Source: Candidatus Babelota bacterium (GTDB lineage Bacteria > Babelota > Babeliae > Babelales > JACPOV01). From it: a stretch of DNA of 64,000 nucleotides. Both the position numbers and the translations under genes were made by a program. A model generated the notes under the pieces. That model did no database searches, was not told the origin of the DNA, and worked only from the letters and a program-made list of their open reading frames with translations. The stretch lies in NCBI GenBank assembly GCA_022707425.1, contig JAKJAQ010000001.1:69089-133088 (forward strand). Reading direction: 5' to 3'. This document shows, one piece after another, positions 1 through 64,000 of this stretch; positions within the stretch are counted from its first letter, which is position 1; the number at the start of each line of letters is the position of its first letter.

Positions 1-3000
1 TTTTATTTTTATATAGAGTATGTAACAAAGTTAGAATATGCCGCACTTCTCGCAGCTTACGGTCGGCAACAAAATATTGATGTTACAACTCTTCTAGAAA
101 AATCAACCTGGATAGAATTTGTCGATACATTAATAAAAAAATCTGGATCATTTACTAACCTCATCACAACAATTAATGCAGCAACACTTACCCCTGATTG
201 GCAAGAAGTACAAGGTACCATTGTTGTTTCATCCTGGAAAGATGTTGTAAATACGCCATTTTGGAAAGCTATTCCTGTTACAGCGCAAATGATCATCAAT
301 TCATCTTTTTGGCAAGATTTTTGTAAATACACAATTACTCGTTCATTTTTACAAGATACTTCGATTTTAGAATCAATCTACGAAACCGATCAATCAATTT
401 TTAGATTTATTCCCAATATCGAAGTTGCTTATTATCATCCTGATTTTGTTCAACTAAGAAATGCTGCAGAATTTCATCGCTTACATTTAGTTTTGACAGA
501 TGAAGTTCGTAATCGATTGCTGAGCCAAACAAAAGATTGGTCAACAATTATTAATCAGGCGAGCGGACAATATGATTTAATTAAAATTAATGATCTAGCA
601 ACGGCTTATCAAAAATCAGATTTCTACCAACTTATTTCTATCGCTAATTCTTCAAGTTTAGGTGATCTTACGCAACAAGGATTACAAAAACAATTGCCGA
701 TCAATCTTAATTATGCAAAGCAACCCTTAGTTCAAGAAAAATTACAATGTTTAGCAATGCTGAAAAATTTACAAGCTCAAACATATTATTTATTTGATGC
801 AACTCATCTTGATCAAACCATGAAATTATTAACTAATACAAAGAATATTCCTTCACCTTCACTCTTTCTCTACACAGCTGATGATTATGTTTATTTGGAA
901 GATTTGGATCGTTTACTTACAAATTTTAAAGATGCAGCTGCACAAGAAACCGCAAATCCTTCCGCAGCGTTACAAATCGTGATGAATTCTCATACCAAAT
1001 TTAACAATGATGAATTAGTAACGGTTCAGGATTTTGGATCATGGATCAGTGGATTATGGAATGATATTAAACAAGCAGGGCAAGATGTTTGGCAAGGGAT
1101 GCAAGACTTTGGAAAAACAGTAGTTGATGAAGCAGAAGCATTGGGTTATGGACTTGCCGGTGCGTTTGTGGGCGCAATTGATCCAAATAAGGCAAAAGAT
1201 TTCGTTCAAAAATCAAAACAGTTACAACAAGATGTTTCTAACGATATTTCAAATACTATCCAAGATGCGCAAAATGTCATTAATGATACAGCAACAGTTG
1301 CTAAAGATGTTACTTCAGGTGCCGCTTCACTTGTAGGAACCGTATTTTCAAAAATTGATGACAAATTAGGAAAAGATATTGAAGGAGCGCTCGATGCTGT
1401 TGCAGATCGCGTTATTGATTTTTATGCGGACATGCAACATGTTGTTGTGGCTTATGAAGGTGGCATCGTTCGCTTAACTGCTGATGCGGTAAATTATGCA
1501 ACAACAATAGTTGCTGACACTGTTGTTGCGGTAAAATCTGGCGATTGGCAAGGATTAGGTCAAGATGCTCTCAATGGACTCAAGAGTATTGCCTATGATG
1601 TAGTAAGTTCTATTATTTCTGTCGGCACATTTATTGTGCAACAAATTGTTGATCAAATTAAAGCACTTGTCAAATTCGCTGGATACATTGTAAGTATTAT
1701 AACTGATTTAACAATTGATACATTCAAAGCTGTATTTAGTGGTTTATCAAGCGCATTTACTGCATTTGGCTGGCAAGGCGGGCAACAAGCTATGCAAACA
1801 GCTTCTGACTGGGTACAAAATCATAGACGATTAATAGAAGCAACTGTCACAACTGGATTGCTTGTTGCAGCGGTTGTTGCCACCGATGGTTTAGCTCTCC
1901 CTGTTCTTGCAATGACGGTAGGCCCTCAACTATTTCAAGTTGCTGGTGGCTATCAGGCAGATGAAAGAGCTGCTGCAAAGAAAGCTGAACAAAAACAATT
2001 TGTGAGTGATTATCAAACATATGTTGCAAACAATAAAATCATTTCTGCAAATGCAAAAGATGCATGGGCTGATGAACTGAGTAAAAAATATCAAGCTCAA
2101 ATTATCAATCAAGAACGAGAACTAGGATTCTACCAAGACTTTCTCCAAACGTACTTTAGTAATATGGAAAACCAAATGTCTTACTATTTAGGACAATCGC
2201 TTGTGCCGCAAATTACACCAGATCCCACATTTGGTGTAATGAGTGCAGATGTTGGTTCTCTCTATGGATGGAACACTGGTGTTTTAAATCTCAATCCATC
2301 ACAAGGATTCCCATTATACAACAATGGAAGACAAGCATTCAGTCAAGAAATTGCTGTTTCACCTGCATTAGCAATTTCTTCTGATGGTCAATCAATTACT
2401 TCTTCAACTCCGCGTAAATTCTGGTTCAATCAAAAAGAAACAATTCCACTTGCACAAGATACGCCAACGGTAGAAATAAAGTGGCGTGCACTTTATACAC
2501 TCAATAGTTTCTCAATTGGGGTTTACTTTGGTGGAGATATTATTGATCTCGATGCAATACGAAAATCTGGATCAGCACCACTTGATGTAAGTCATCTTGC
2601 AAAAATGCTTGTGTACAAAAAAGATAATAAAGATCAACCAACAACTCTTAATCTTTACGAACACGAAGGTAGTGGTTGGTTTGCGCAACCAACTGGCCCA
2701 GATTTTGCAATTGGGCAGTGGTATCATATGCGACTTCAACTTTCAAATAATAGTTTGAGTGTGCAAATATGGAAAGAAGGAACAACCCCTCCTGCACCAC
2801 AAACATTCACAGTTGCACCAACAAAACAACGAACTGTGGGTGTAATTTCTTCAGGAGCATCTATTGAATATCAAATTATCACACCACAAGTGCCTCTTAA
2901 AATAATCCCTAAATTAAGACCATCGGGTGGACTGGGAATTCCAACTGAAAAGCAACGTGAAATTGATGCTCGTAAGCAAATGCAACAACTCACGAATCCT

Positions 3001-3981
3001 GTAATTGGATCATTTAACTTACAATCAATTAATAAACCAGCAATTCTTAGGGGACATTACATTTACACAACAAACGGAACTGGACTCGTTGACGCACAAA
3101 AAAAATCGATAACCGATTATGTAACACTCGGACAAGCTTCAGTTGGTACCCAAGGATCAACAATAATTAATCAGATTGGTATCTCTCCTCTTGTTGCTCT
3201 TGCACCGGGAGCACCGGCACCTGCTCTTGTAAGCTTAATCTCACAAAAGGCTTATGATCAAAATGCAAAACAAATAGCTACTTGCCCTCATGTTCTTGAG
3301 TCATTTGTACAAACAAATGGACAGCTTTCGGATGAAACAGCAAAAACTATAAATTCATTAAGAAATGCTTATGCATCAAATCTTGTTGGACCATTTAACT
3401 TTGGCACCATTTCATTACAAGCAATTAGTGCTCAAGATGTAATTGACGGCCATTACCTCTATAAAGCAACATCTCCTGCGCCGGAACTTCATGATAGCCA
3501 AGGAAATCCTTTAAAAGACAGTACGGGCAATCTTCTTTATGATTATTTCTTAATGAAGACCAGTGATGGAATTCTTGGCGTACCATTTGATACATCGATT
3601 ACTACCATGCGAAGCCTGGTAACAGGATATGAATACAATCGCAACAGCACTTCACCACTTTCAATTCGTTATAATGCGCAAACTACACTAACTGTTTATC
3701 AAAAAAACACTGGCGCACTACCATCTTCGCTTCTCAATGCAATTAATGCTTCAACTACATTCTACCAACAAGCAGTTAAACAAGAGCAGGCTGTTGATCA
3801 AACACAACCAGATACAACTACAACACAACCTGTTGGTGGAGGTAATATCTCAAACCCTGATGGCGGGTACAGTGGCGGCGGTGGCAACCAACAACAAATA
3901 GACCCAAATAATCCCGCAGACCAAAGTATTCAAGACAGAACAGAACAAGCAAGTAGCGGCGATATCTCGTTTGGCGGATAG
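1..3981 (+). CDS. Giant protein of unknown function, 5'-partial (open to the left window edge); probably exported or surface-associated
   Basis: Frame 1 has no stop from nt 1 to the TAG at 3979-3981, so the ATG at 289 in the ORF track is an internal Met. Nt ~1130-1960 encode a long Ala/Val/Asp/Gly amphipathic segment plus hydrophobic helices. Nt ~2410-2890 encode a LamG/ConA-like stretch (...GQWYHMRLQLSNNSLSVQIWKEG). Two ~127-aa tandem modules start at nt 3013 and 3394 (GxFN..LQ.I...GHY.Y...DY). The tail is Gly/Gln/Thr-rich. Confidence 0.6.
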   Translation, partial: FYFYIEYVTKLEYAALLAAYGRQQNIDVTTLLEKSTWIEFVDTLIKKSGSFTNLITTINAATLTPDWQEVQGTIVVSSWKDVVNTPFWKAIPVTAQMIINSSFWQDFCKYTITRSFLQDTSILESIYETDQSIFRFIPNIEVAYYHPDFVQLRNAAEFHRLHLVLTDEVRNRLLSQTKDWSTIINQASGQYDLIKINDLATAYQKSDFYQLISIANSSSLGDLTQQGLQKQLPINLNYAKQPLVQEKLQCLAMLKNLQAQTYYLFDATHLDQTMKLLTNTKNIPSPSLFLYTADDYVYLEDLDRLLTNFKDAAAQETANPSAALQIVMNSHTKFNNDELVTVQDFGSWISGLWNDIKQAGQDVWQGMQDFGKTVVDEAEALGYGLAGAFVGAIDPNKAKDFVQKSKQLQQDVSNDISNTIQDAQNVINDTATVAKDVTSGAASLVGTVFSKIDDKLGKDIEGALDAVADRVIDFYADMQHVVVAYEGGIVRLTADAVNYATTIVADTVVAVKSGDWQGLGQDALNGLKSIAYDVVSSIISVGTFIVQQIVDQIKALVKFAGYIVSIITDLTIDTFKAVFSGLSSAFTAFGWQGGQQAMQTASDWVQNHRRLIEATVTTGLLVAAVVATDGLALPVLAMTVGPQLFQVAGGYQADERAAAKKAEQKQFVSDYQTYVANNKIISANAKDAWADELSKKYQAQIINQERELGFYQDFLQTYFSNMENQMSYYLGQSLVPQITPDPTFGVMSADVGSLYGWNTGVLNLNPSQGFPLYNNGRQAFSQEIAVSPALAISSDGQSITSSTPRKFWFNQKETIPLAQDTPTVEIKWRALYTLNSFSIGVYFGGDIIDLDAIRKSGSAPLDVSHLAKMLVYKKDNKDQPTTLNLYEHEGSGWFAQPTGPDFAIGQWYHMRLQLSNNSLSVQIWKEGTTPPAPQTFTVAPTKQRTVGVISSGASIEYQIITPQVPLKIIPKLRPSGGLGIPTEKQREIDARKQMQQLTNPVIGSFNLQSINKPAILRGHYIYTTNGTGLVDAQKKSITDYVTLGQASVGTQGSTIINQIGISPLVALAPGAPAPALVSLISQKAYDQNAKQIATCPHVLESFVQTNGQLSDETAKTINSLRNAYASNLVGPFNFGTISLQAISAQDVIDGHYLYKATSPAPELHDSQGNPLKDSTGNLLYDYFLMKTSDGILGVPFDTSITTMRSLVTGYEYNRNSTSPLSIRYNAQTTLTVYQKNTGALPSSLLNAINASTTFYQQAVKQEQAVDQTQPDTTTTQPVGGGNISNPDGGYSGGGGNQQQIDPNNPADQSIQDRTEQASSGDISFGG

Positions 3982-7856: not shown

Positions 7857-8927
7857 TTATTCAACTGCTTCATCGACCTGTTCGTCTAGTTCAGCTTGAC
7901 GTTCTTGGGTCGATTTTTCGCTCTGCACAAGGTTAATATTCAAACCTACAAGCTGAGACGCCAGCGCTATGTTTTGTCCCATTTTACCGATTGCCAATGA
8001 TCGTTGATCTTCATCAAGCCAAACTTGTGCTGCTGTTGTTCCCACAAGCTCAACCCTGCTTATAACCGCAGGCTTAAGAGCATCCGCAATCATATCTTCC
8101 ACCGATTCGCGCCAAGGGATTACGTCAATTTTTTCACCACCAAGTTCCTTTAAAATTGGTTTTATACGTACTCCACCGACACCAACACAGGTTCCTACTG
8201 GATCTATGTTTTTTTCATGTGAAACGACGGCAATTTTTGTTTTGTACCCAGGAATACGCACAATTTTTTTAATCTCAACAATTTTTTCAAAAATTTCAGG
8301 AATCTCAAGCTCAAATAATATACGTACAAAATCGGACGATGCGCGATCAAGAATAAGCTGATAATCATTGCGAGGCTCTGTCAAAACTTCTTTGAGCAAA
8401 GCGCGAATTGAATATCCAACAACGCATTTGTCTGTAGGCAAAGATAGAGACCTTGGCAAAAATGCGAGTGTTTCATCTAGCTTGAGCGACATTCCATTGC
8501 GCTCACACTTATGAATTGTGCCATGAACAATCGTATCTTTTCTATCTTTATACTGATTATAAATTGCTGCAGCTTCAACGCCCCTAATTTTTGTAGCAAT
8601 TACTTGTTTTGCGCGTAAAATTTCTATGCGCCCAATTTTCCCTTCAAAGGGTACCCATACCTCTCCACCAATTTCAACGCTCGGGTCAAAAGTACGGGCT
8701 TTTCGCAGAGAAATCTCTATTTCGTCATCACTGACAGTAGCAACAACTGCTTTGCGCACTTTAATTTCTATTTCATCAGTTTTTTTATTATAAGAAATGT
8801 CAAAAGTAAGCTCAGGGAACCGCTTGGTATATGCAGCCATCAGTCCTTCGCAAATAATTGAACTTAAAAGAGAACGATCAAGGCCTCTCTCTTCTATGAG
8901 TTCCTCGATTACTTGTGCAAGTTTCAC
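7857..8927 (-). CDS. nusA: Transcription termination/antitermination factor NusA
   Basis: The N-terminal domain, S1 and tandem KH regions are recognisable (...DPVGTCVGVGGVRIKPILKELGGEKIDVI..., ...LAIGKMGQNIALASQLVGLNINL). GTG start with AAGGAA SD. The nusA-infB order is conserved. Confidence 0.9.
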   Translation of the reverse strand: MKLAQVIEELIEERGLDRSLLSSIICEGLMAAYTKRFPELTFDISYNKKTDEIEIKVRKAVVATVSDDEIEISLRKARTFDPSVEIGGEVWVPFEGKIGRIEILRAKQVIATKIRGVEAAAIYNQYKDRKDTIVHGTIHKCERNGMSLKLDETLAFLPRSLSLPTDKCVVGYSIRALLKEVLTEPRNDYQLILDRASSDFVRILFELEIPEIFEKIVEIKKIVRIPGYKTKIAVVSHEKNIDPVGTCVGVGGVRIKPILKELGGEKIDVIPWRESVEDMIADALKPAVISRVELVGTTAAQVWLDEDQRSLAIGKMGQNIALASQLVGLNINLVQSEKSTQERQAELDEQVDEAVE

Positions 8928-8939
8928 AGGGTTCCTTAT

Positions 8940-9060
8940 GATCCAAAATTAAAATAAGACTTTTTAAGTGTAGCAAAAAATTAAATAAATAAAAGAAGAT
9001 ATCTGATTGTAAGGTGAGAATGCCTATTATTATAATTGTTATAATTCTCTTTCTTTAAAC
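8940..9060. other. Very AT-rich spacer: nusA promoter region and candidate DNA-unwinding element
   Basis: About 120 bp of almost pure A/T runs (aaaattaaaataag..., attattataattgttataattc...) lie between the nusA start and the TAA-repeat/G5/DnaA-box element. Confidence 0.35.
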
Positions 9061-9079
9061 TAATAATAATAAGGGGGAC
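9061..9079. promoter_or_regulatory. DnaA-trio-like element: four TAA triplets followed by a G5 cluster, next to a DnaA box
   Basis: TAATAATAATAA (9061-9072) is followed by GGGGGAC (9073-9079) and, 6 nt later, the DnaA box at 9086-9094. Confidence 0.4.
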
Positions 9080-9085
9080 AAAAAT

Positions 9086-9194
9086 TGTGGATAACTGTGT
9101 TGTTTTTTTAAAGAAAGGGTGGCTCATTCGATATTTTGGCCCAAGCGAGACTTGTGGATAACCTGTGGATAACTTGTGGACAGATTGTGGATAA
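9086..9194 (-). promoter_or_regulatory. DnaA-box array, reverse orientation (4 perfect boxes and 1 degenerate)
   Basis: TGTGGATAA at 9086-9094, 9153-9161, 9164-9172 and 9186-9194. TGTGGACAG at 9175-9183. The last four boxes have an exact 11-bp period. Confidence 0.85.
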
Positions 9195-9304
9195 CTTTAT
9201 ATGCAGATCTTTTTTTAGTTGCATTGACTCCGTAGGAGCTCTAATTAAGATTAAGAAATGCGCATCTCTTGATTTGATCGTTTAATTTGAAAATATAACG
9301 GAAG

Positions 9305-9346
9305 TTATCCACAAGTTATCCACAAGTTATCCACAGGTTATCCACA
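9305..9346 (+). promoter_or_regulatory. DnaA-box array, forward orientation (4 perfect head-to-tail boxes)
   Basis: TTATCCACA at 9305-9313, 9316-9324, 9327-9335 and 9338-9346, with an exact 11-bp period. It is the inverted copy of the 9151-9195 array. Confidence 0.85.
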
Positions 9347-9359
9347 ATTTCTATGCGAA

Positions 9360-9947
9360 TTATTTTTTCTGAAGAAGCTGCGCTTGCTCAAGGGCAAATT
9401 TAATGTCATTAGAAAATGTTGTAATTTCTGAAGCGTTTCTCAGGATGTAGGCAGGGTGGTAAGTTGGAATGATTATCATGCCATTTTGCTCAATTATTTT
9501 ACCGCGAGCTTTGGTTATCTTAAACTCTTTGCCTGTCAGGTGGACAAGCGCAGTTGAGCCAAGAGTGCAAATGACTTTAGGGCGTATAATTTTAATTTGC
9601 TTTTCAAGCAAGAGTTTTTTGCAAGTGGTGCTTTCAAGCTCGGTTGGGGTTCGGTTATCGGGCGGGCGACATTTAACAATGTTAGAAATAAAAACATTTT
9701 CTCTTTTTACCTGATGAGACGCTAAAGTACGCGTTAGTAGTTGGCCAGATCGTCCTACAAAAGGACGGCCTTGAAGGTCTTCATCTCGTCCAGGCCCTTC
9801 GCCAATGAACATTAATCCGGCATCGGGATCTCCTTCGCCAAATACTACATTTTTCCGGCCAAGTGAGCCAAGTGGGCACATTGTGCAATTTTTATATGGT
9901 TCATAAAGTTCGTTCAGGAGCGCTTGTTTATATAATTTAGGATCCAT
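9360..9947 (-). CDS. Uracil-DNA glycosylase, family 4
   Basis: Motifs CTMCPL, GEGPGRDEDLQGRPFVGRSGQLL and HPAYILRN, at the typical ~195-aa size. Confidence 0.85.
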   Translation of the reverse strand: MDPKLYKQALLNELYEPYKNCTMCPLGSLGRKNVVFGEGDPDAGLMFIGEGPGRDEDLQGRPFVGRSGQLLTRTLASHQVKRENVFISNIVKCRPPDNRTPTELESTTCKKLLLEKQIKIIRPKVICTLGSTALVHLTGKEFKITKARGKIIEQNGMIIIPTYHPAYILRNASEITTFSNDIKFALEQAQLLQKK

Positions 9948-10078
9948 AATTGCCTGTAGTTAAAAAGTTTATACAAGGTGAAGTTTAACAAAATTGTCAA
10001 AAATGTATAAAAAAGCGACATGCCGATTTAGTTAATTGTATTTTTTGCAACAACTCGCCAAGATACTTTAGTATCGGT

Positions 10079-34006: not shown

Positions 34007-35017
34007 GTGAACAATAGATTGCCTATTTTTAGATTGATGTGTTTGCTGCTTTGTGCCAGCACGGTTGTTTTTGCAGATAATAATTCATGGGAATCATTTT
34101 GGGAAATGTTTTGGGGCCCAAAAATTAATTATTCGGCAGTTCAATTTGATGTGCAGGATGAATTAGATCGCTTATTTTTTAATAAATTAGAATTTATATC
34201 GCCCGAAATGCAAAACGTACGTTTTCAAATGAGTAAAAATATTGTTGAATTAATTAAATCATCTAATCTTGATTCCCAAGTGCAAGCAAAAGAACAGGCG
34301 GTTGCAGCGGTAAAGCCGGCGATAAAGCAATTTGTTGTTGATCTTGGAACGAAAAAAATTGTACAAGAAATTGGTTCATATTATCATGGCCGACCTCCGT
34401 ACAATCCTGAACAATTTGAACAGCGAATAAAACAGGAATTGGCACAACAAATTGATGATGCATTTCGTAAAAATAAAAATGTTACACAGCTGTTGAGCAT
34501 GAGTAAGCTTAAGGAAATTATTGAACAATACGATAATCAATATGCTCTTCAAGCTGGCGGTGTTTATCACAAATTAGATAAAGAATTGCCACAACTCTAT
34601 GCGGGTCAAACAGTTGCAGGAGAGGATGTGCCAGCGGGAGCACCGGTGGATAATGTACATGAACTTTATCCACAATTTAATGATAAAACCGCTGAAGGAC
34701 TGGAGCGTAATAAGAAATTTTATGGTCCATTTTTTGAAAAAGTAAAACAATTCCGCGCAGAAGAATGTCCAATTTGCAGCGAAAATTTTGATGCGCATTG
34801 TGCACGCGTAAATTTATATTGCGGACATTCATTATGTGCAACATGTTTAGCAGGACATGTGCATATTAATGATAAAAATCAATGTCCAACATGCAGACAA
34901 GAAGTGCGCGCATCAGAATTTCCGGTAAATTATTTACGCGATTTCATCAACCGGGAAGATCTCAAACAACAATTTCCCAGGATGCATGATAAAATACGCA
35001 GATTATTTAGGTTTTAA
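34007..35017 (+). CDS. Exported protein with a C-terminal eukaryote-type C3HC4 RING finger (putative E3 ubiquitin-ligase mimic)
   Basis: CPICSENFDAHCARVNLYCGHSLCATCLAGHVHINDKNQCPTCRQ gives C-x2-C-x14-C-x-H-x2-C-x2-C-x12-C-x2-C (nt 34766-34894). Hydrophobic leader. The GTG at 34007 lies 6 nt after AAGGAG; the ORF-track ATG at 33980 is the alternative. Confidence 0.75.
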   Translation: MNNRLPIFRLMCLLLCASTVVFADNNSWESFWEMFWGPKINYSAVQFDVQDELDRLFFNKLEFISPEMQNVRFQMSKNIVELIKSSNLDSQVQAKEQAVAAVKPAIKQFVVDLGTKKIVQEIGSYYHGRPPYNPEQFEQRIKQELAQQIDDAFRKNKNVTQLLSMSKLKEIIEQYDNQYALQAGGVYHKLDKELPQLYAGQTVAGEDVPAGAPVDNVHELYPQFNDKTAEGLERNKKFYGPFFEKVKQFRAEECPICSENFDAHCARVNLYCGHSLCATCLAGHVHINDKNQCPTCRQEVRASEFPVNYLRDFINREDLKQQFPRMHDKIRRLFRF

Positions 35018-35407: not shown

Positions 35408-36475
35408 TTATTGAGGCATACTATAGTTGATGTGTTCAAGATCTTCAATCCAGGCGGTTACTAAAGCTATTTCTGCTGGTTTAAAATATTGCTTAATTAT
35501 TAATTCGTTCATGAGTTCTTCCATCCGTTCAACAAATACCTTTTTTTCGCATTTCCAATTACGCAATGTGTTAATGAGTTGCTCAGATTTTAAATATACA
35601 TCAATTTCGTCCGCAAAATCGGTGAGTAAATTGTGTTCATTGCGATATTGAACTGCTGTTGGTGCAAGAAAACAGACCGATCCGTCAAAATCCCAGAGGA
35701 GCCGCTGCATCCAATAACTTCTCCAAATGTCACAGACGCGAAAACTTGGAGTAACTGGCAAAAGTAATGCCCAGAATGCGTTGTAATAAAAAATAGTATT
35801 TTGTGAATTAAATGGGCAGAGAACGCCGCGTTGTAAACTAAGCGGCTTCTTATTCGAATCAAAATTAATTTCTTGACTGTGTGTCAAACGATAAATTGCA
35901 TCAACATCAGGATCATTATTCACGACACCTTGCTGAATAGGACAATGAACGTGCCGTTCAACTGTTTGATACTGTTGGTTATGTATAATTTTTTTAAGTG
36001 GATACCCGCGTGGCCATACGTTTGGTTGTCCAAAATGTTCATAAGGATTAACCGTTGATTGATCAGTGATGTATTGAATTGTGGTTGCATGTTCAGGTAG
36101 ATAGCCAATTTCATTATCTATTAAATAATTGTCGTCATCGGTTTCATAAATGATTCGTGCTCCGTGTTCAATTGCATAAAGATAGCCAATATTTTTTCGC
36201 GAATAATGATTCCATGGTAGAAACTGAATAATTTTGTAGGGCAACTGTTGTTGTTTTTCTACGCTCAAAAATTCACAATTATCTAAATGCCAATCGCATG
36301 GCGTTTTTTTATCAGCCACTACTACCAAATGCCAATCGGGAAGTTGCGCAAGCTGCTTAAGTGCCGCAGTTGGATAATTAATGGTAGTAACAACAATCCA
36401 TTTATCAGTCGCATTAATTTTGATGCATGAAATAAATAAAAAAAAGTATGCAATGCGTTGCAAAATTGTGCTCAT
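35408..36475 (-). CDS. STELLO/DUF288-like glycosyltransferase (eukaryote-type), signal-anchored
   Basis: WIVVTTINYPT...WHLVVVADKKTPCDW, RKNIGYLYAIEHGARIIYETDDDNY, VNPYEHFGQPNVWPRGYPL and QQGVVNNDPDVDAIYRLT. These match, from memory, the plant and Dictyostelium STELLO family. The start overlaps the stop of the upstream gene by 1 nt. Confidence 0.65.
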   Translation of the reverse strand: MSTILQRIAYFFLFISCIKINATDKWIVVTTINYPTAALKQLAQLPDWHLVVVADKKTPCDWHLDNCEFLSVEKQQQLPYKIIQFLPWNHYSRKNIGYLYAIEHGARIIYETDDDNYLIDNEIGYLPEHATTIQYITDQSTVNPYEHFGQPNVWPRGYPLKKIIHNQQYQTVERHVHCPIQQGVVNNDPDVDAIYRLTHSQEINFDSNKKPLSLQRGVLCPFNSQNTIFYYNAFWALLLPVTPSFRVCDIWRSYWMQRLLWDFDGSVCFLAPTAVQYRNEHNLLTDFADEIDVYLKSEQLINTLRNWKCEKKVFVERMEELMNELIIKQYFKPAEIALVTAWIEDLEHINYSMPQ

Positions 36476-38826: not shown

Positions 38827-39684
38827 TTATTGTTTGTGTTGTTCAAAATAATTTTCTATGAACGTGCGATTTTCTTCATATGAAAGCTTTATTGGATGAT
38901 TAAAATGTAAATGTTCACTAAAATATTCTTGTGATTGCGCAGTTCCAGGATAAAAGGTACCCGTACCTTGTAACCAAAACCAATTATTTTTTGAAGTGAG
39001 ACAACTCAAGATTGTTGGCAGCGCTGTTTCCAGAAAAGCTTTTCTTTTTGCGAAAATAAGTGCCAATTTTATAAACGTATCCTTGTACATTGCAGGAATG
39101 TATGCAAGATCAGAAAATGATGCTGGTACTGTATTTTTGCCCCAATTTTTTTCTAATATTTTTTTTTGTTCGCGTGGTAATTTTTTGAAAGCACTTTTCA
39201 TTGGCTCATATCCCCATTCAGATTGCCACCATGCCCAATGAGTAATTGCTTTTTTGCCTAATTTAATTTTTATTGGTGTGCCACGGTTATTGATTTGTTT
39301 TCCATCATTTTGAATGATAAAGGGAATATCACCAAACCATATTTTTTTTGTATCGATACCGGTCAATAACCAAGGATTCAAAATACAATCATCCATTAGA
39401 AAGAGATATCCTTCAAAATGTGGATAACGCTCCATGGCATCAGCAATTGCGGTGTAACTAAAATATCCTTTATGATGATTACATACATGTATTTCTGGGT
39501 GCTCTTTTGGCCCATAGAAAACAACTTTTCCAAAATAGGGTGTATATATTTTCTTGAGTAAATCAATTGATTCGTAATGTGCATGATTATAATTAATAAT
39601 GAGAAGAATGTTTTTAAAATCGGTTGAAAAAATTGATCCACAGGTAAATAAAAAAATGAAACTTACTATTTGCATGAACTTCAT
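38827..39684 (-). CDS. Signal-anchored orphan protein, family A copy 2
   Basis: LLIINYNHAHYESIDLLKKIYTPYF..VFYGPKEH...ADAMERYPHFEGYLFLMDDCILNPWLL, a paralog of 36475-37311. AGAGGG SD. Confidence 0.6.
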   Translation of the reverse strand: MKFMQIVSFIFLFTCGSIFSTDFKNILLIINYNHAHYESIDLLKKIYTPYFGKVVFYGPKEHPEIHVCNHHKGYFSYTAIADAMERYPHFEGYLFLMDDCILNPWLLTGIDTKKIWFGDIPFIIQNDGKQINNRGTPIKIKLGKKAITHWAWWQSEWGYEPMKSAFKKLPREQKKILEKNWGKNTVPASFSDLAYIPAMYKDTFIKLALIFAKRKAFLETALPTILSCLTSKNNWFWLQGTGTFYPGTAQSQEYFSEHLHFNHPIKLSYEENRTFIENYFEQHKQ

Positions 39685-61615: not shown

Positions 61616-62890
61616 TCAACCATTAGTTAATAGATACCAAAAGCAATCTAGGATTGAAAATTTACTCGCAGGTCTTTCATGCTCAACTAAAAACTTTTCG
61701 TTAAAATACGTGCGGTATGCTTCGGGCAATTGTTCAAAATCCTCTTTTTGTTGTCTTTCTTGCTGTTGATCTAAAGCCCATAATAGAATTTTTTTGTGAT
61801 TGGTTGTTTTGAATTGTTCATTTAAGAATTTGATATTTTCATCTGATAGATTTTCGAATAAATTTTTCATAAAAACGAAAATATGACTAAAATGCCAAAT
61901 ATCGATGCCGCCGTTTGATGATAATGATGCAAAAATTGGAGAATTTCTTTGAAGATCAAAAGAACGAATAAAATTATGTTGAGGTTCCAAAACTGAAACA
62001 ATTGCACTTTTTTCTGGCTTAATTAGGTAAATCTTACCCTCTGAAAGAGCGGTGAGTATATTATGTGTGTCACTCCAGCGCAAATTAGTTGGTTTTTTCA
62101 GTTTTATTTCAGTTTCATTATCGCTAACATCAAAAGTTTTATATTTTTTGATTGATACATTATTATTTTCCTCTGCAACATAAGCTAATATTGTGCCTGG
62201 GCCATTAGAAGTGATATGCCCAATGGTTTTTTGATCATCATTAATAATATTTTCTTGGTGCATAGAGTCATAAAGGGCGAAAATACCGTTATTTTTTGTT
62301 CCAATGAGTAAATGGTTGTCATTCCAGTATAATGAGGTAGGTAATGCATTTACTTGGTGTACAGCTATTTCATTTATCCTGTTTTTAGGATAAACACGGA
62401 CCTGATTTATTTCATTCATGATGAGAGCAAATTTTTCCCCTGAAGGGTGCCAACTTATTCCAGCTACTGTTTTAGGAAGTTCCAATAGATGTGAAACTTT
62501 TAATAAATCATGAGCATTTTCAGATTGCCAAAGTTTTATTTCCTTACCCCCAACCGTGATGAGATTGTTTTCCGTAGGGCTATAGGAAAGAAATGAAATT
62601 GGAGATGGATGGTTGTAATGAGACTCATCAAAGTTTACCGATTTTTCTGCAAAGTTTAATTCTGCTTTTGTAAAATCATATGTTTTTTCTTGAGGAATGA
62701 TTTGGGTTCCATTGTGATTTATACCTATATTGAATTCATCAATATGGGAATAATCACAAAATAGAGGTTGTGGGCTTACCGTTGCTATAATGTTCTGTTT
62801 TGCTTGTTCTGTTAATTGTTCTGATTCTTTTTCCATCGATTGTACATTAAAAAATAGGCTTAACAGAGCAATAAAAAATATATAATTCAT
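61616..62890 (-). CDS. Exported WD40/beta-propeller repeat protein (leader-ME class)
   Basis: Leader MNYIFFIALLSLFFNVQS followed by MEK. Repeats include LSYSPTENNLITVGGKEIKLWQ, ISWHPSGEKFALIM and FASLSSNGGIDIWH. AAGGAA SD. 4 nt upstream of murI. Confidence 0.65.
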   Translation of the reverse strand: MNYIFFIALLSLFFNVQSMEKESEQLTEQAKQNIIATVSPQPLFCDYSHIDEFNIGINHNGTQIIPQEKTYDFTKAELNFAEKSVNFDESHYNHPSPISFLSYSPTENNLITVGGKEIKLWQSENAHDLLKVSHLLELPKTVAGISWHPSGEKFALIMNEINQVRVYPKNRINEIAVHQVNALPTSLYWNDNHLLIGTKNNGIFALYDSMHQENIINDDQKTIGHITSNGPGTILAYVAEENNNVSIKKYKTFDVSDNETEIKLKKPTNLRWSDTHNILTALSEGKIYLIKPEKSAIVSVLEPQHNFIRSFDLQRNSPIFASLSSNGGIDIWHFSHIFVFMKNLFENLSDENIKFLNEQFKTTNHKKILLWALDQQQERQQKEDFEQLPEAYRTYFNEKFLVEHERPASKFSILDCFWYLLTNG

Positions 62891-62897
62891 TATTTCC

Positions 62898-64000
62898 TTA
62901 ATCTAAATGTACGATGCCTTTTAATAATTTGTTTATTATTAATTGTAACACAGAGTAATTATCTTTTTCACGAACTAGGTTATGTATGCGTAGCATTTGT
63001 TGCATATCTTTAGGCAGGCTATTAAAACTATCAACTACCTGTTTATCTTTTTTAGGATTAATAACTAATGGGCCATTTTTGAAAACCTTTTTCAACAGTT
63101 CTTGTTGTTTTGTAGACAGAGAATAATAAGGATTTTCGTTTACAAGAGCCATCCTTTCTATATCCCATAATTTAATATTTCCATTTACTGATCCGGAAAT
63201 TAGACGAGTGCCTTCATAATTAAAATCAATATCAGCTTTTTCATTGAGATTAAAACGTCCGATACGTGAATTATTTGCAGGGTTCCATACATTTACCACA
63301 CCATTTTGTGTCGCCGTTGCAATAATATTGTTTTGATGATTCCATTTGATGTGTGTTATGGTATCGTTATGATCGCCAATTTTTTTTGATGCTTCACTAG
63401 TGATTTGATAGAGCACAAGATCTTTGTTGTGTGCGACAACAAAATTTTCATTATCAGGACTTGATGCGATCAATGCCGTTTGCGCTCCAACAATCGATTT
63501 AATGAAGGTAAGAAGATTGTTTTTTTCTTCGAAAATATAATAACGGCCTTCGTTATTGCAGAGTATGACATATTTTTCGTTCCATTCGGCGCAAATTATA
63601 TTGTTCAATCCGCGAACGGAAGCTATAAATTCATTATTTTCTGTATTCCATATCTTAACAGAATTTTTTTTATGACTAACTGTTGCAAATTGTTTGCCAT
63701 TTGGACTGAATACAAAATTATCAATTGAGTCTTGAGTATTTATTTGTCTGGTTGGAAATACGTTATACAGTTCATCGTGTTGTGACGAAAGTGTCCATGT
63801 TGATGGATTATCATTTTCAAATGCAGCAATAATATTGTTGCCATCAGGGTGCCATGCGACTGGTCCAATAGTACCTTGTTTGCCAAAAAAGCTCCGATTA
63901 TTCCACAATAAACTATCTTCATTATTCTCTAAAAGCGAAAATGCAGATGATTGTTCGGTAGTAATAGCAATTTGATTGCCGTTAGGTTGCCAATTAATTG
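62898..64000 (-). CDS. WD40/beta-propeller repeat protein, 5'-partial (open to the right window edge)
   Basis: The ORF-track start at 63908 is a TTG. The frame stays open to nt 64000 and encodes a further repeat (...NWQPNGNQIAI...). Other repeats: VAWHPDGNNIIAAF, FSPNGKQFATVSHKKNSVKIWN, IATATQNGVVNVWN and LISGSVNGNIKLWD. Confidence 0.7.
   Translation of the reverse strand, partial: INWQPNGNQIAITTEQSSAFSLLENNEDSLLWNNRSFFGKQGTIGPVAWHPDGNNIIAAFENDNPSTWTLSSQHDELYNVFPTRQINTQDSIDNFVFSPNGKQFATVSHKKNSVKIWNTENNEFIASVRGLNNIICAEWNEKYVILCNNEGRYYIFEEKNNLLTFIKSIVGAQTALIASSPDNENFVVAHNKDLVLYQITSEASKKIGDHNDTITHIKWNHQNNIIATATQNGVVNVWNPANNSRIGRFNLNEKADIDFNYEGTRLISGSVNGNIKLWDIERMALVNENPYYSLSTKQQELLKKVFKNGPLVINPKKDKQVVDSFNSLPKDMQQMLRIHNLVREKDNYSVLQLIINKLLKGIVHLD

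Follow-up and report, generated by a model that had tools for sequence, protein, structure and literature searches.

The intergenic region between udg and nusA in a 64,000-nucleotide stretch of the genome of Candidatus Babelota bacterium (contig JAKJAQ010000001.1 of assembly GCA_022707425.1, positions 69,089 to 133,088 of the forward strand; hereafter the window) carries a cluster of DnaA boxes that is very probably oriC, the DnaA-dependent chromosomal origin of this Babeliales bacterium, placed apart from dnaA. An earlier inspection of the letters of the window (the original prediction) had proposed oriC as its first reading of the cluster, with a datA/DARS-like or DnaA-regulated element as the alternative. 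The oriC reading was supported by a switch of GC skew, by the synteny conserved around the cluster, and by an unwinding module of the kind described as the basal unwinding system (BUS). Since a skew switch of origin polarity falls at the same element in all 23 genomes analyzed, the window and 22 relatives, we favor oriC over a DnaA-titration or regulatory site.

The relatives were 22 loci of the order Babeliales of the Dependentiae (TM6), found by a NusA search of the GTDB representative genomes (NusA identity 95% to 54%) and sampled as loci of approximately 21 kb, with 10 kb on each side of nusA. Four of them (L005, L006, L008, and L009) came from complete chromosomes; the complete records are OY970169.1, OY969622.1, OY969616.1, and OY969428.1, the last of which corresponds to L006. 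Twenty loci displayed the architecture with standard boxes, L016 was truncated by the end of its contig, and L020 and L006 were the apparent exceptions.

The GC skew changes sign at the cluster

The cumulative GC skew of the window reached its minimum at 8906, at the cluster. The skew was negative from approximately 2 to 9 kb and positive from 9 to 64 kb. All genes between 4478 and 12784 lie on the minus strand, and the change of sign falls within this co-oriented run; the switch is not a by-product of gene orientation because the flanking genes are all on one strand. The original prediction considered its origin call insecure on the grounds that gene orientation does not clearly switch here. 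There is no orientation switch here, and the skew flips within genes of the same strand.

The negative-to-positive flip at the cluster was found in 23 of 23 genomes, locally, over 10 to 55 kb per side. All 19 relatives with a full cluster had a mean skew of -0.045 to -0.156 on the udg side and of +0.057 to +0.176 on the nusA side. In 18 of these 19, the cumulative minimum was located 11 to 302 bp past the end of the cluster that is nearer to nusA, and in L009 it was within the cluster; for most of the 19, it fell at or near the A+T-rich tract. The minima of L016, L020, and L006 were situated at their own variant origins. Skew had been proposed in the original prediction as a check on its call, and the local switch in the window and in all 22 relatives favors oriC.

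Two opposed arrays and a lone box make up the cluster

The motif search found eight perfect TTATCCACA boxes within 261 bp (9086-9346), all exactly at the positions given in the original prediction. TGTGGATAA occurs on the plus strand (equal to TTATCCACA on the minus strand) at 9086, 9153, 9164, and 9186, and the remaining four perfect boxes form the outer, udg-side array (Table 1). The degenerate box noticed before at 9175 is also present, as TGTGGACAG with two mismatches. The sites are arranged as two opposed four-site arrays plus a lone box, and seven of the eight array sites match the consensus perfectly. The repeat analysis found the exact 11-bp period, already claimed for each array, in both of them. 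The arrays form an inverted repeat with arms of 46 nt (9152-9197 and 9302-9347) that are 93% complementary and 104 nt apart, with 110 bp between the box edges; hence the arms and the spacer of approximately 110 bp described earlier were borne out, whereas the four mismatches ascribed to them were slightly too many.

Such a density of boxes is far from the chance expectation. In dinucleotide-preserving shuffles of the 64-kb window (n = 100), the mean number of perfect boxes was 0.60 per 64 kb and the maximum was 2, and none of the 100 shuffles got to 10. Outside the cluster, only two perfect boxes occur in the 64 kb, at 34666 and 39419, the same isolated copies that had been listed before. No second box cluster was found in the window, where any 500 bp elsewhere contain at most three sites with up to one mismatch. 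GATC occurs three times in the 432-bp intergenic region versus 1.6 expected and is not notably enriched.

The isolated box at 34666 has a one-mismatch partner 21 bp off in the opposite orientation, at 34645 (34645-34674), and the box at 39419-39427 has one 215 bp away, at 39634-39642. Both pairs are situated in open reading frames (ORFs) of unknown function or at the edges of these, and chance would suffice to explain them.

The predicted unwinding module lies on the nusA side

The BUS has been reported as widespread, and its sequence rule was applied here in the form of a DnaA box with up to two mismatches, a spacer of 0 to 16 bp, and at least three trios of the form (.A.) on the strand opposite TTATCCACA; the commonest spacer is 13 bp, the maximum is 16 bp, and the trio consensus is 3'-GAT-5' (PMC8287927). 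In agreement with this rule, a spacer of 13 bp separates a perfect box of the window from four 3'-AAT-5' trios. Its minus strand reads 5'-TTATCCACA-ATTTTTGTCCCCC-TTA TTA TTA TTA, and then comes the A+T core. The A+T content peaks at 88% over 9024-9072, which also contains the 30-mers of lowest stability in the intergenic region. Of all 40-mers of the window, only 0.45% attain 87.5% A+T.

In the relatives, three to five [C/T]TA trios on the box strand are followed by 24 to 32 nt of 83% to 100% A+T. The spacer between the box and the trios is 13 or 14 bp long, and 4 bp long in L007 and L009. In 21 of the 23 sequences, two or more [C/T]TA trios follow one another directly after a spacer of 4 to 17 bp; the sequences of L015 and L019 are imperfect. 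The comparison with a Bacillus-type layout made in the original prediction held well: the BUS rule, the strand relationship known from B. subtilis, and the conservation in the family all match it. The G5 cluster (9073-9077) and the four TAA triplets (9061-9072) had also been read correctly, but the approximately 120 bp of nearly pure A/T claimed next to them was overstated, as 8940-9060 has 78.5% A+T versus 64.3% for the whole window.

A second unwinding module at the udg end was considered and rejected, as neither conserved trios nor an A+T tract were found beyond the outer array. Because the module was not found beyond the udg-side array, unwinding is predicted on the nusA side only. The 13 bp past the outermost box, 9347-9359 (ATTTCTATG[C/T]GAA), are conserved in L001, L003, L004, and L008, with no trios after them, and may represent a decayed box or a udg terminator region.

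Table 1. Features of the candidate origin and its flanking genes, in window coordinates.
Feature	Position	Strand	Remarks
nusA, first gene of the nusA-infB unit	7857..8927	-	GTG start; AAGGAA ribosome-binding site (8932-8937); transcription leads away from the origin
Whole nusA-udg intergenic region, candidate oriC	8928..9359		432 bp; skew minimum and homologous clusters in relatives
GCCTATTATTA, reverse complement of the trio set and its GC end	9022..9032	+	sequence and position conserved
A+T-rich core, candidate DNA-unwinding element	9033..9060		abuts the trios
DnaA-trios, TAA x4 = 3'-AAT-5' x4; predicted DnaA-filament strand	9061..9072	+	agree with the 3'-G/AAT-5' consensus and with the required minimum of three (.A.) trios
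13-bp spacer ATTTTTGTCCCCC (minus strand)	9073..9085	-	ends in the G5/C5 cluster; commonest BUS spacer length
Lone DnaA box, putative BUS box anchoring the unwinding module	9086..9094	-	equivalent box in all relatives, each with its own variant
Gap between inner array and lone box	9095..9152		67 bp start to start; sequence not conserved
Inner array: perfect boxes 9153, 9164, 9186; degenerate box 9175	9153..9194	-	points towards the A+T tract; same orientation as the lone box
Inter-array spacer	9195..9304		110 bp, 68% A+T; sequence not conserved among relatives
Outer (udg-side) array: four perfect TTATCCACA boxes, starts 9305, 9316, 9327, 9338	9305..9346	+	AG/GG linkers
udg, family-4 uracil-DNA glycosylase	9360..9947	-	stop codon 13 bp from the outer array

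A pathway of initiation may be proposed from this arrangement. Domain IV of DnaA would recognize nine sites, i.e., the two opposed arrays of four and the lone box. A period of 11 to 12 bp (a 9-bp box with a 2- to 3-bp linker) would bring the AAA+ domains of DnaA into the range of head-to-tail contact, and DnaA would form closely packed oligomers on the arrays. Both the inner array and the lone box face the A+T tract and would concentrate DnaA-ATP at the unwinding site and feed it. The lone box, 13 bp from the trios, would nucleate a DnaA-ATP filament onto the trio strand, which is the plus strand of the window. The filament would stretch this strand and open the 88% A+T core at approximately 9033-9060, where the helicase would be loaded. 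The outer opposed array may act as the right-half subcomplex does in E. coli. Transcription of nusA-infB would run away from the opened region, and its promoter would overlap that region.

A conserved motif flanks the A+T core on the nusA side

A motif like TAATAATAGGC flanks the A+T core on the nusA side in most genomes, and the loop between the two trio arms is 24 to 32 nt long in 17 of 22 loci. An own-versus-cross-locus comparison of the two arms gave a marginal covariation of the far-side motif with the first trio arm (p = 0.046). In L008 (9895-9903), L009 (9833-9841), and L020 (2873-2881), a reversed box follows the far-side motif, as does a degenerate one in L004 (approximately 9893), giving a mirrored module. 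A forward TTATACACA or ATATACACA follows it in L012, L016, and L019, and the window has no such box.

The far-side motif of the window (9022-9032) may be a second, opposite-strand set of trios or the -10 region of nusA. The nusA promoter must lie within or adjoining the unwinding region, and TATAATAATAGGC may be its -10 and start region. The scan of the intergenic region for promoters and terminators returned three promoter-like sites versus 2.8 expected and hence was uninformative on the nusA promoter. A hairpin or cruciform made of the inverted trio motifs was rejected, as 35 of 200 shuffles folded equally well; the minimum free energy was -4.5 kcal/mol (z = -0.87).

Synteny and geometry are conserved in the Babeliales

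A homologous cluster was found in all 22 relatives, in a one-strand synteny of comEC-N, a clostripain-like gene, udg, the cluster, nusA, infB, and an mraY-like gene, which holds down to 54% NusA identity. The internal order is an outer array of three to five boxes, a spacer of approximately 100 to 114 bp, an inner array of three or four boxes in the opposite orientation, a gap, the lone box, and then approximately 170 to 300 bp to the start of nusA. Within the arrays of the whole family, neighboring boxes start 11 bp apart 73 times and 12 bp apart 28 times. The lone box and the inner array are separated, from box start to box start, by 66 to 68 bp in 14 of the 22 listed sequences (15 with the window), by 55 to 56 bp in three genomes, and by 77 to 78 bp in two, and the lengths of the inter-array gap cluster at approximately 88, 99, 110, 122, and 134 bp. 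Because the lengths gather at these values, both distances shift in steps of approximately 11 bp. To judge from the sequences, the geometry is evidently under selection: the boxes are perfect and the spacers quantized at approximately 11 bp, and the spacer sequence is unalignable. The logo of 169 boxes defined an extended site of A, G/C, TTATCCAC[A/C], A. The number of boxes shifts quickly between close relatives.

Of the exceptional loci, L020 combines 11-bp arrays of TTTTCAACC with the complete module downstream of them. The origin of L006 is reduced and adjoins udg; it is composed of CTATTCACA, 13 bp, and then TTA CTA CTA TTA. Between this reduced origin and nusA, approximately 5.5 kb are inserted (L006 3900-10000, in the complete chromosome OY969428.1), including a gene with 102-bp (34-aa, ankyrin-like) repeats, and the skew minimum stays at the udg-side remnant of the origin.

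Each origin uses a single box variant

All boxes of one origin share one variant, which is TTATCCACA, TTATCCACC, or, in L020 (2541-2881), TTTTCAACC. The TTATCCACA loci are the window, L001 to L005, L008, L012, L016, L019, and L022. TTATCCACC, the form ending in ACC, was found at approximately 9470-9840 in L007, L009, L010, L011, L013, L014, L015, L017, L018, and L021, which essentially represent one clade of the NusA tree (nine of the ten members, with L018 apart). The deepest branches of this tree carry TTATCCACA (L022) and TTTTCAACC (L020). The uniformity within each origin suggests either co-evolution with domain IV of DnaA or homogenization of the arrays.

A further reading, possible but doubtful, is that the Babeliales origins constitute a natural series, with recognition site and unwinding module re-tuned as a unit and with a two-sided core. 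Eight to ten boxes per origin would change together in such a series, down to the CTATTCACA-like box of the reduced origin. If true, the concerted change would imply that DnaA domain IV co-evolves with the whole set of sites or that the set is homogenized by slippage or gene conversion. The inverted trio sets with the mirrored box (4 of 23 genomes) would then form a symmetric BUS with DnaA filaments on both strands, which goes beyond the published one-sided BUS model.

Flanking genes and the position of dnaA

The annotation confirmed both genes between which the original prediction had placed the cluster, nusA and udg. Neither dnaA nor dnaN was found in the 64-kb window, i.e., over 9 and 55 kb on either side of the cluster, by annotating every ORF of 100 aa or more and by tblastn, and neither gene was present within 10 kb on either side of nusA in any of the 22 relatives. 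Thus, annotation and tblastn agree with the earlier statement that no dnaA lies nearby. The tblastn probe was a B. subtilis DnaA sequence, used for detection only, and it did detect dnaA in unrelated phyla. In loci of Vulcanimicrobiota/Xenobia and in one locus labelled Selenomonadaceae (L048, L054, L056, L057, L058, L063, and L079; dnaA at approximately 6.5 to 8.0 kb and nusA at 10001 in most of them), dnaA lies only approximately 2 to 3 kb upstream of nusA, which makes the two genes close neighbors in another phylum.

In L005, L006, L008, and L009, nusA lies at 3% to 16% of the genome length from the start or end of the record, which is unlikely if the starts are arbitrary. We may speculate that these complete records were rotated to dnaA, which would put dnaA 38 to 282 kb from the origin.

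Searches of the window gave no tRNA gene and no Rfam match. Farther from the cluster, the window encodes a 1230-aa protein without an NCBIfam match (289-3981), a STELLO-like glycosyltransferase (35408-36475), and two adjacent WD40 beta-propeller proteins (61616-63908). Eukaryote-like gene content is typical of the Dependentiae.

Comparison with known origins

The BUS of B. subtilis oriC (incC) consists of DnaA-boxes 6 and 7, a GC-rich gap, the DnaA-trios, and an A+T-rich 27-mer (Richardson 2016; PMC6669920; PMC8287927). Its reference scaffold reads 5'-TTATCCACA-AATCCACAGGCC-CTACTATTACTTCTACTA, with the trios CTA CTA TTA CTT CTA CTA (PMC8287927 supplement). The candidate origin shares with it TTATCCACA, a spacer of 12 to 13 bp that ends G+C-rich, three or more opposite-strand trios whose central letter is A, and the A+T tract, in the same order and strand relationship. 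A helically phased distal box in B. subtilis also has a parallel here, in the upstream box distances that change in steps of approximately 11 bp. In contrast to B. subtilis, the origin described here is apart from dnaA and is not bipartite, its spacer has no recognizable second box, and its upstream boxes form two regular opposed arrays instead of scattered sites. The trios of the window are AAT and not GAT, whereas the relatives mix CTA and TTA.

It is well known that an origin may be unlinked from dnaA. In E. coli, oriC is found between gidA and mioC and is likewise unlinked from dnaA, a feature that the candidate origin shares. E. coli oriC has two oppositely oriented arrays of four DnaA sites with a 2-bp separation (Rozgaja 2011, as cited in PMC6070618), and to that extent it resembles the cluster, with its two opposed arrays of approximately four 9-mers, 2-bp linkers, and an 11-bp period. 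The E. coli arrays differ in that their low-affinity sites prefer DnaA-ATP and are filled from the high-affinity R1, R2, and R4, whereas the sites here are, by sequence, consensus boxes. No 13-mer DUE (DNA-unwinding element) repeats, another E. coli feature, were seen at the origin of the window.

Within the Dependentiae, an origin of approximately 590 bp was assigned in Chromulinavorax destructans to 651,641-652,233 by GC skew and TTATCCACA boxes (PMC6561590). It belongs to the same phylum, was called on the same type of evidence, and is of similar size, and the paper gives neither its gene context nor its architecture; it is probably homologous to the udg-nusA locus. The dnaA gene has been reported in Babela (PMC4378268) and an origin-binding complex in Chromulinavorax (PMC6561590). 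No published description of an origin between udg and nusA, or of its architecture, was found.

Alternative explanations

Several points weigh against the assignment of oriC to the cluster. Adjacency of dnaA and dnaN, typical of oriC although not defining it, was not found, and the window contains no parS consensus. The skew minimum is local, established over the 9 kb that the window has left of the cluster and over 10 kb per side in the relatives, and the first 2 to 3 kb of the window, where a plus-strand gene lies, have a slightly positive skew. A second box cluster may exist beside dnaA, outside the sampled loci. In Babela massiliensis, which belongs to the same order, skew alone was used to call the origin, 152 nt upstream of dnaA (PMC4378268). 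Finally, the case for oriC is built entirely from sequence.

Some of these points would fit a DnaA-titration or recycling locus of the datA/DARS type, or a DnaA-controlled nusA-infB promoter, with the true oriC elsewhere, e.g., beside dnaA. Besides the lack of dnaA and dnaN in the surveyed DNA and the published Babela massiliensis origin next to dnaA, such an explanation draws on the nusA promoter, which must overlap the A+T region, so that DnaA occupancy could influence its transcription. An effect of this kind on nusA is compatible with origin function and makes no true alternative. The datA and DARS loci of E. coli resemble the cluster in being groups of DnaA boxes away from dnaA, but they have few boxes plus IHF sites and are not known to have an unwinding module of trios and A+T tract or a skew switch. 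The locus of the window has a complete and conserved module of box, spacer, trios, and A+T core, and a site serving titration or regulation would not account for the negative-to-positive flip of skew seen in all 23 genomes. Both the full BUS module and the skew switch hence argue against this class, and we consider it improbable.

The least probable explanation, which can practically be set aside, makes the cluster either the origin of a plasmid or prophage that has integrated or a tandem repeat that expanded recently and plays no part in chromosomal replication. In its favor, box number changes rapidly between close relatives, and a Baumannia plasmid (NZ_CP011788.1; L081, 3333-3400) has six tandem TGTTATCCACA consensus units with an 11-bp period and an A+T-rich tract after them. 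Against it, housekeeping genes border the cluster in a synteny that extends order-wide to 54% NusA identity, no mobile-element genes adjoin it, the search of the plasmid database gave only a 45-bp array match, and the geometry and the BUS module are constrained while the spacers drift. In the Baumannia plasmid, the same array geometry occurs independently, with the difference that it is a single array with no opposed one, on a 3.5-kb plasmid of a gammaproteobacterial symbiont and in an unrelated context.

Implications of a probable origin between udg and nusA

With the cluster very probably being oriC, the origin of a whole order of uncultured, host-dependent bacteria would be placed at the udg-nusA landmark and not at dnaA. 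The known facts of bacterial initiation are not overturned by this. The landmark could be used for rotating and checking assemblies, for estimating growth rate from read depth, and for annotation, and the unwinding module composed of box, spacer, and trios would be extended to the Dependentiae. The 23 origins make a compact set for working out the rules of origin architecture, such as the 11-bp period, the spacer steps of approximately 11 bp, and the BUS spacer of 13 to 14 versus 4 bp, and they would also allow the evolution of DnaA specificity to be tested.

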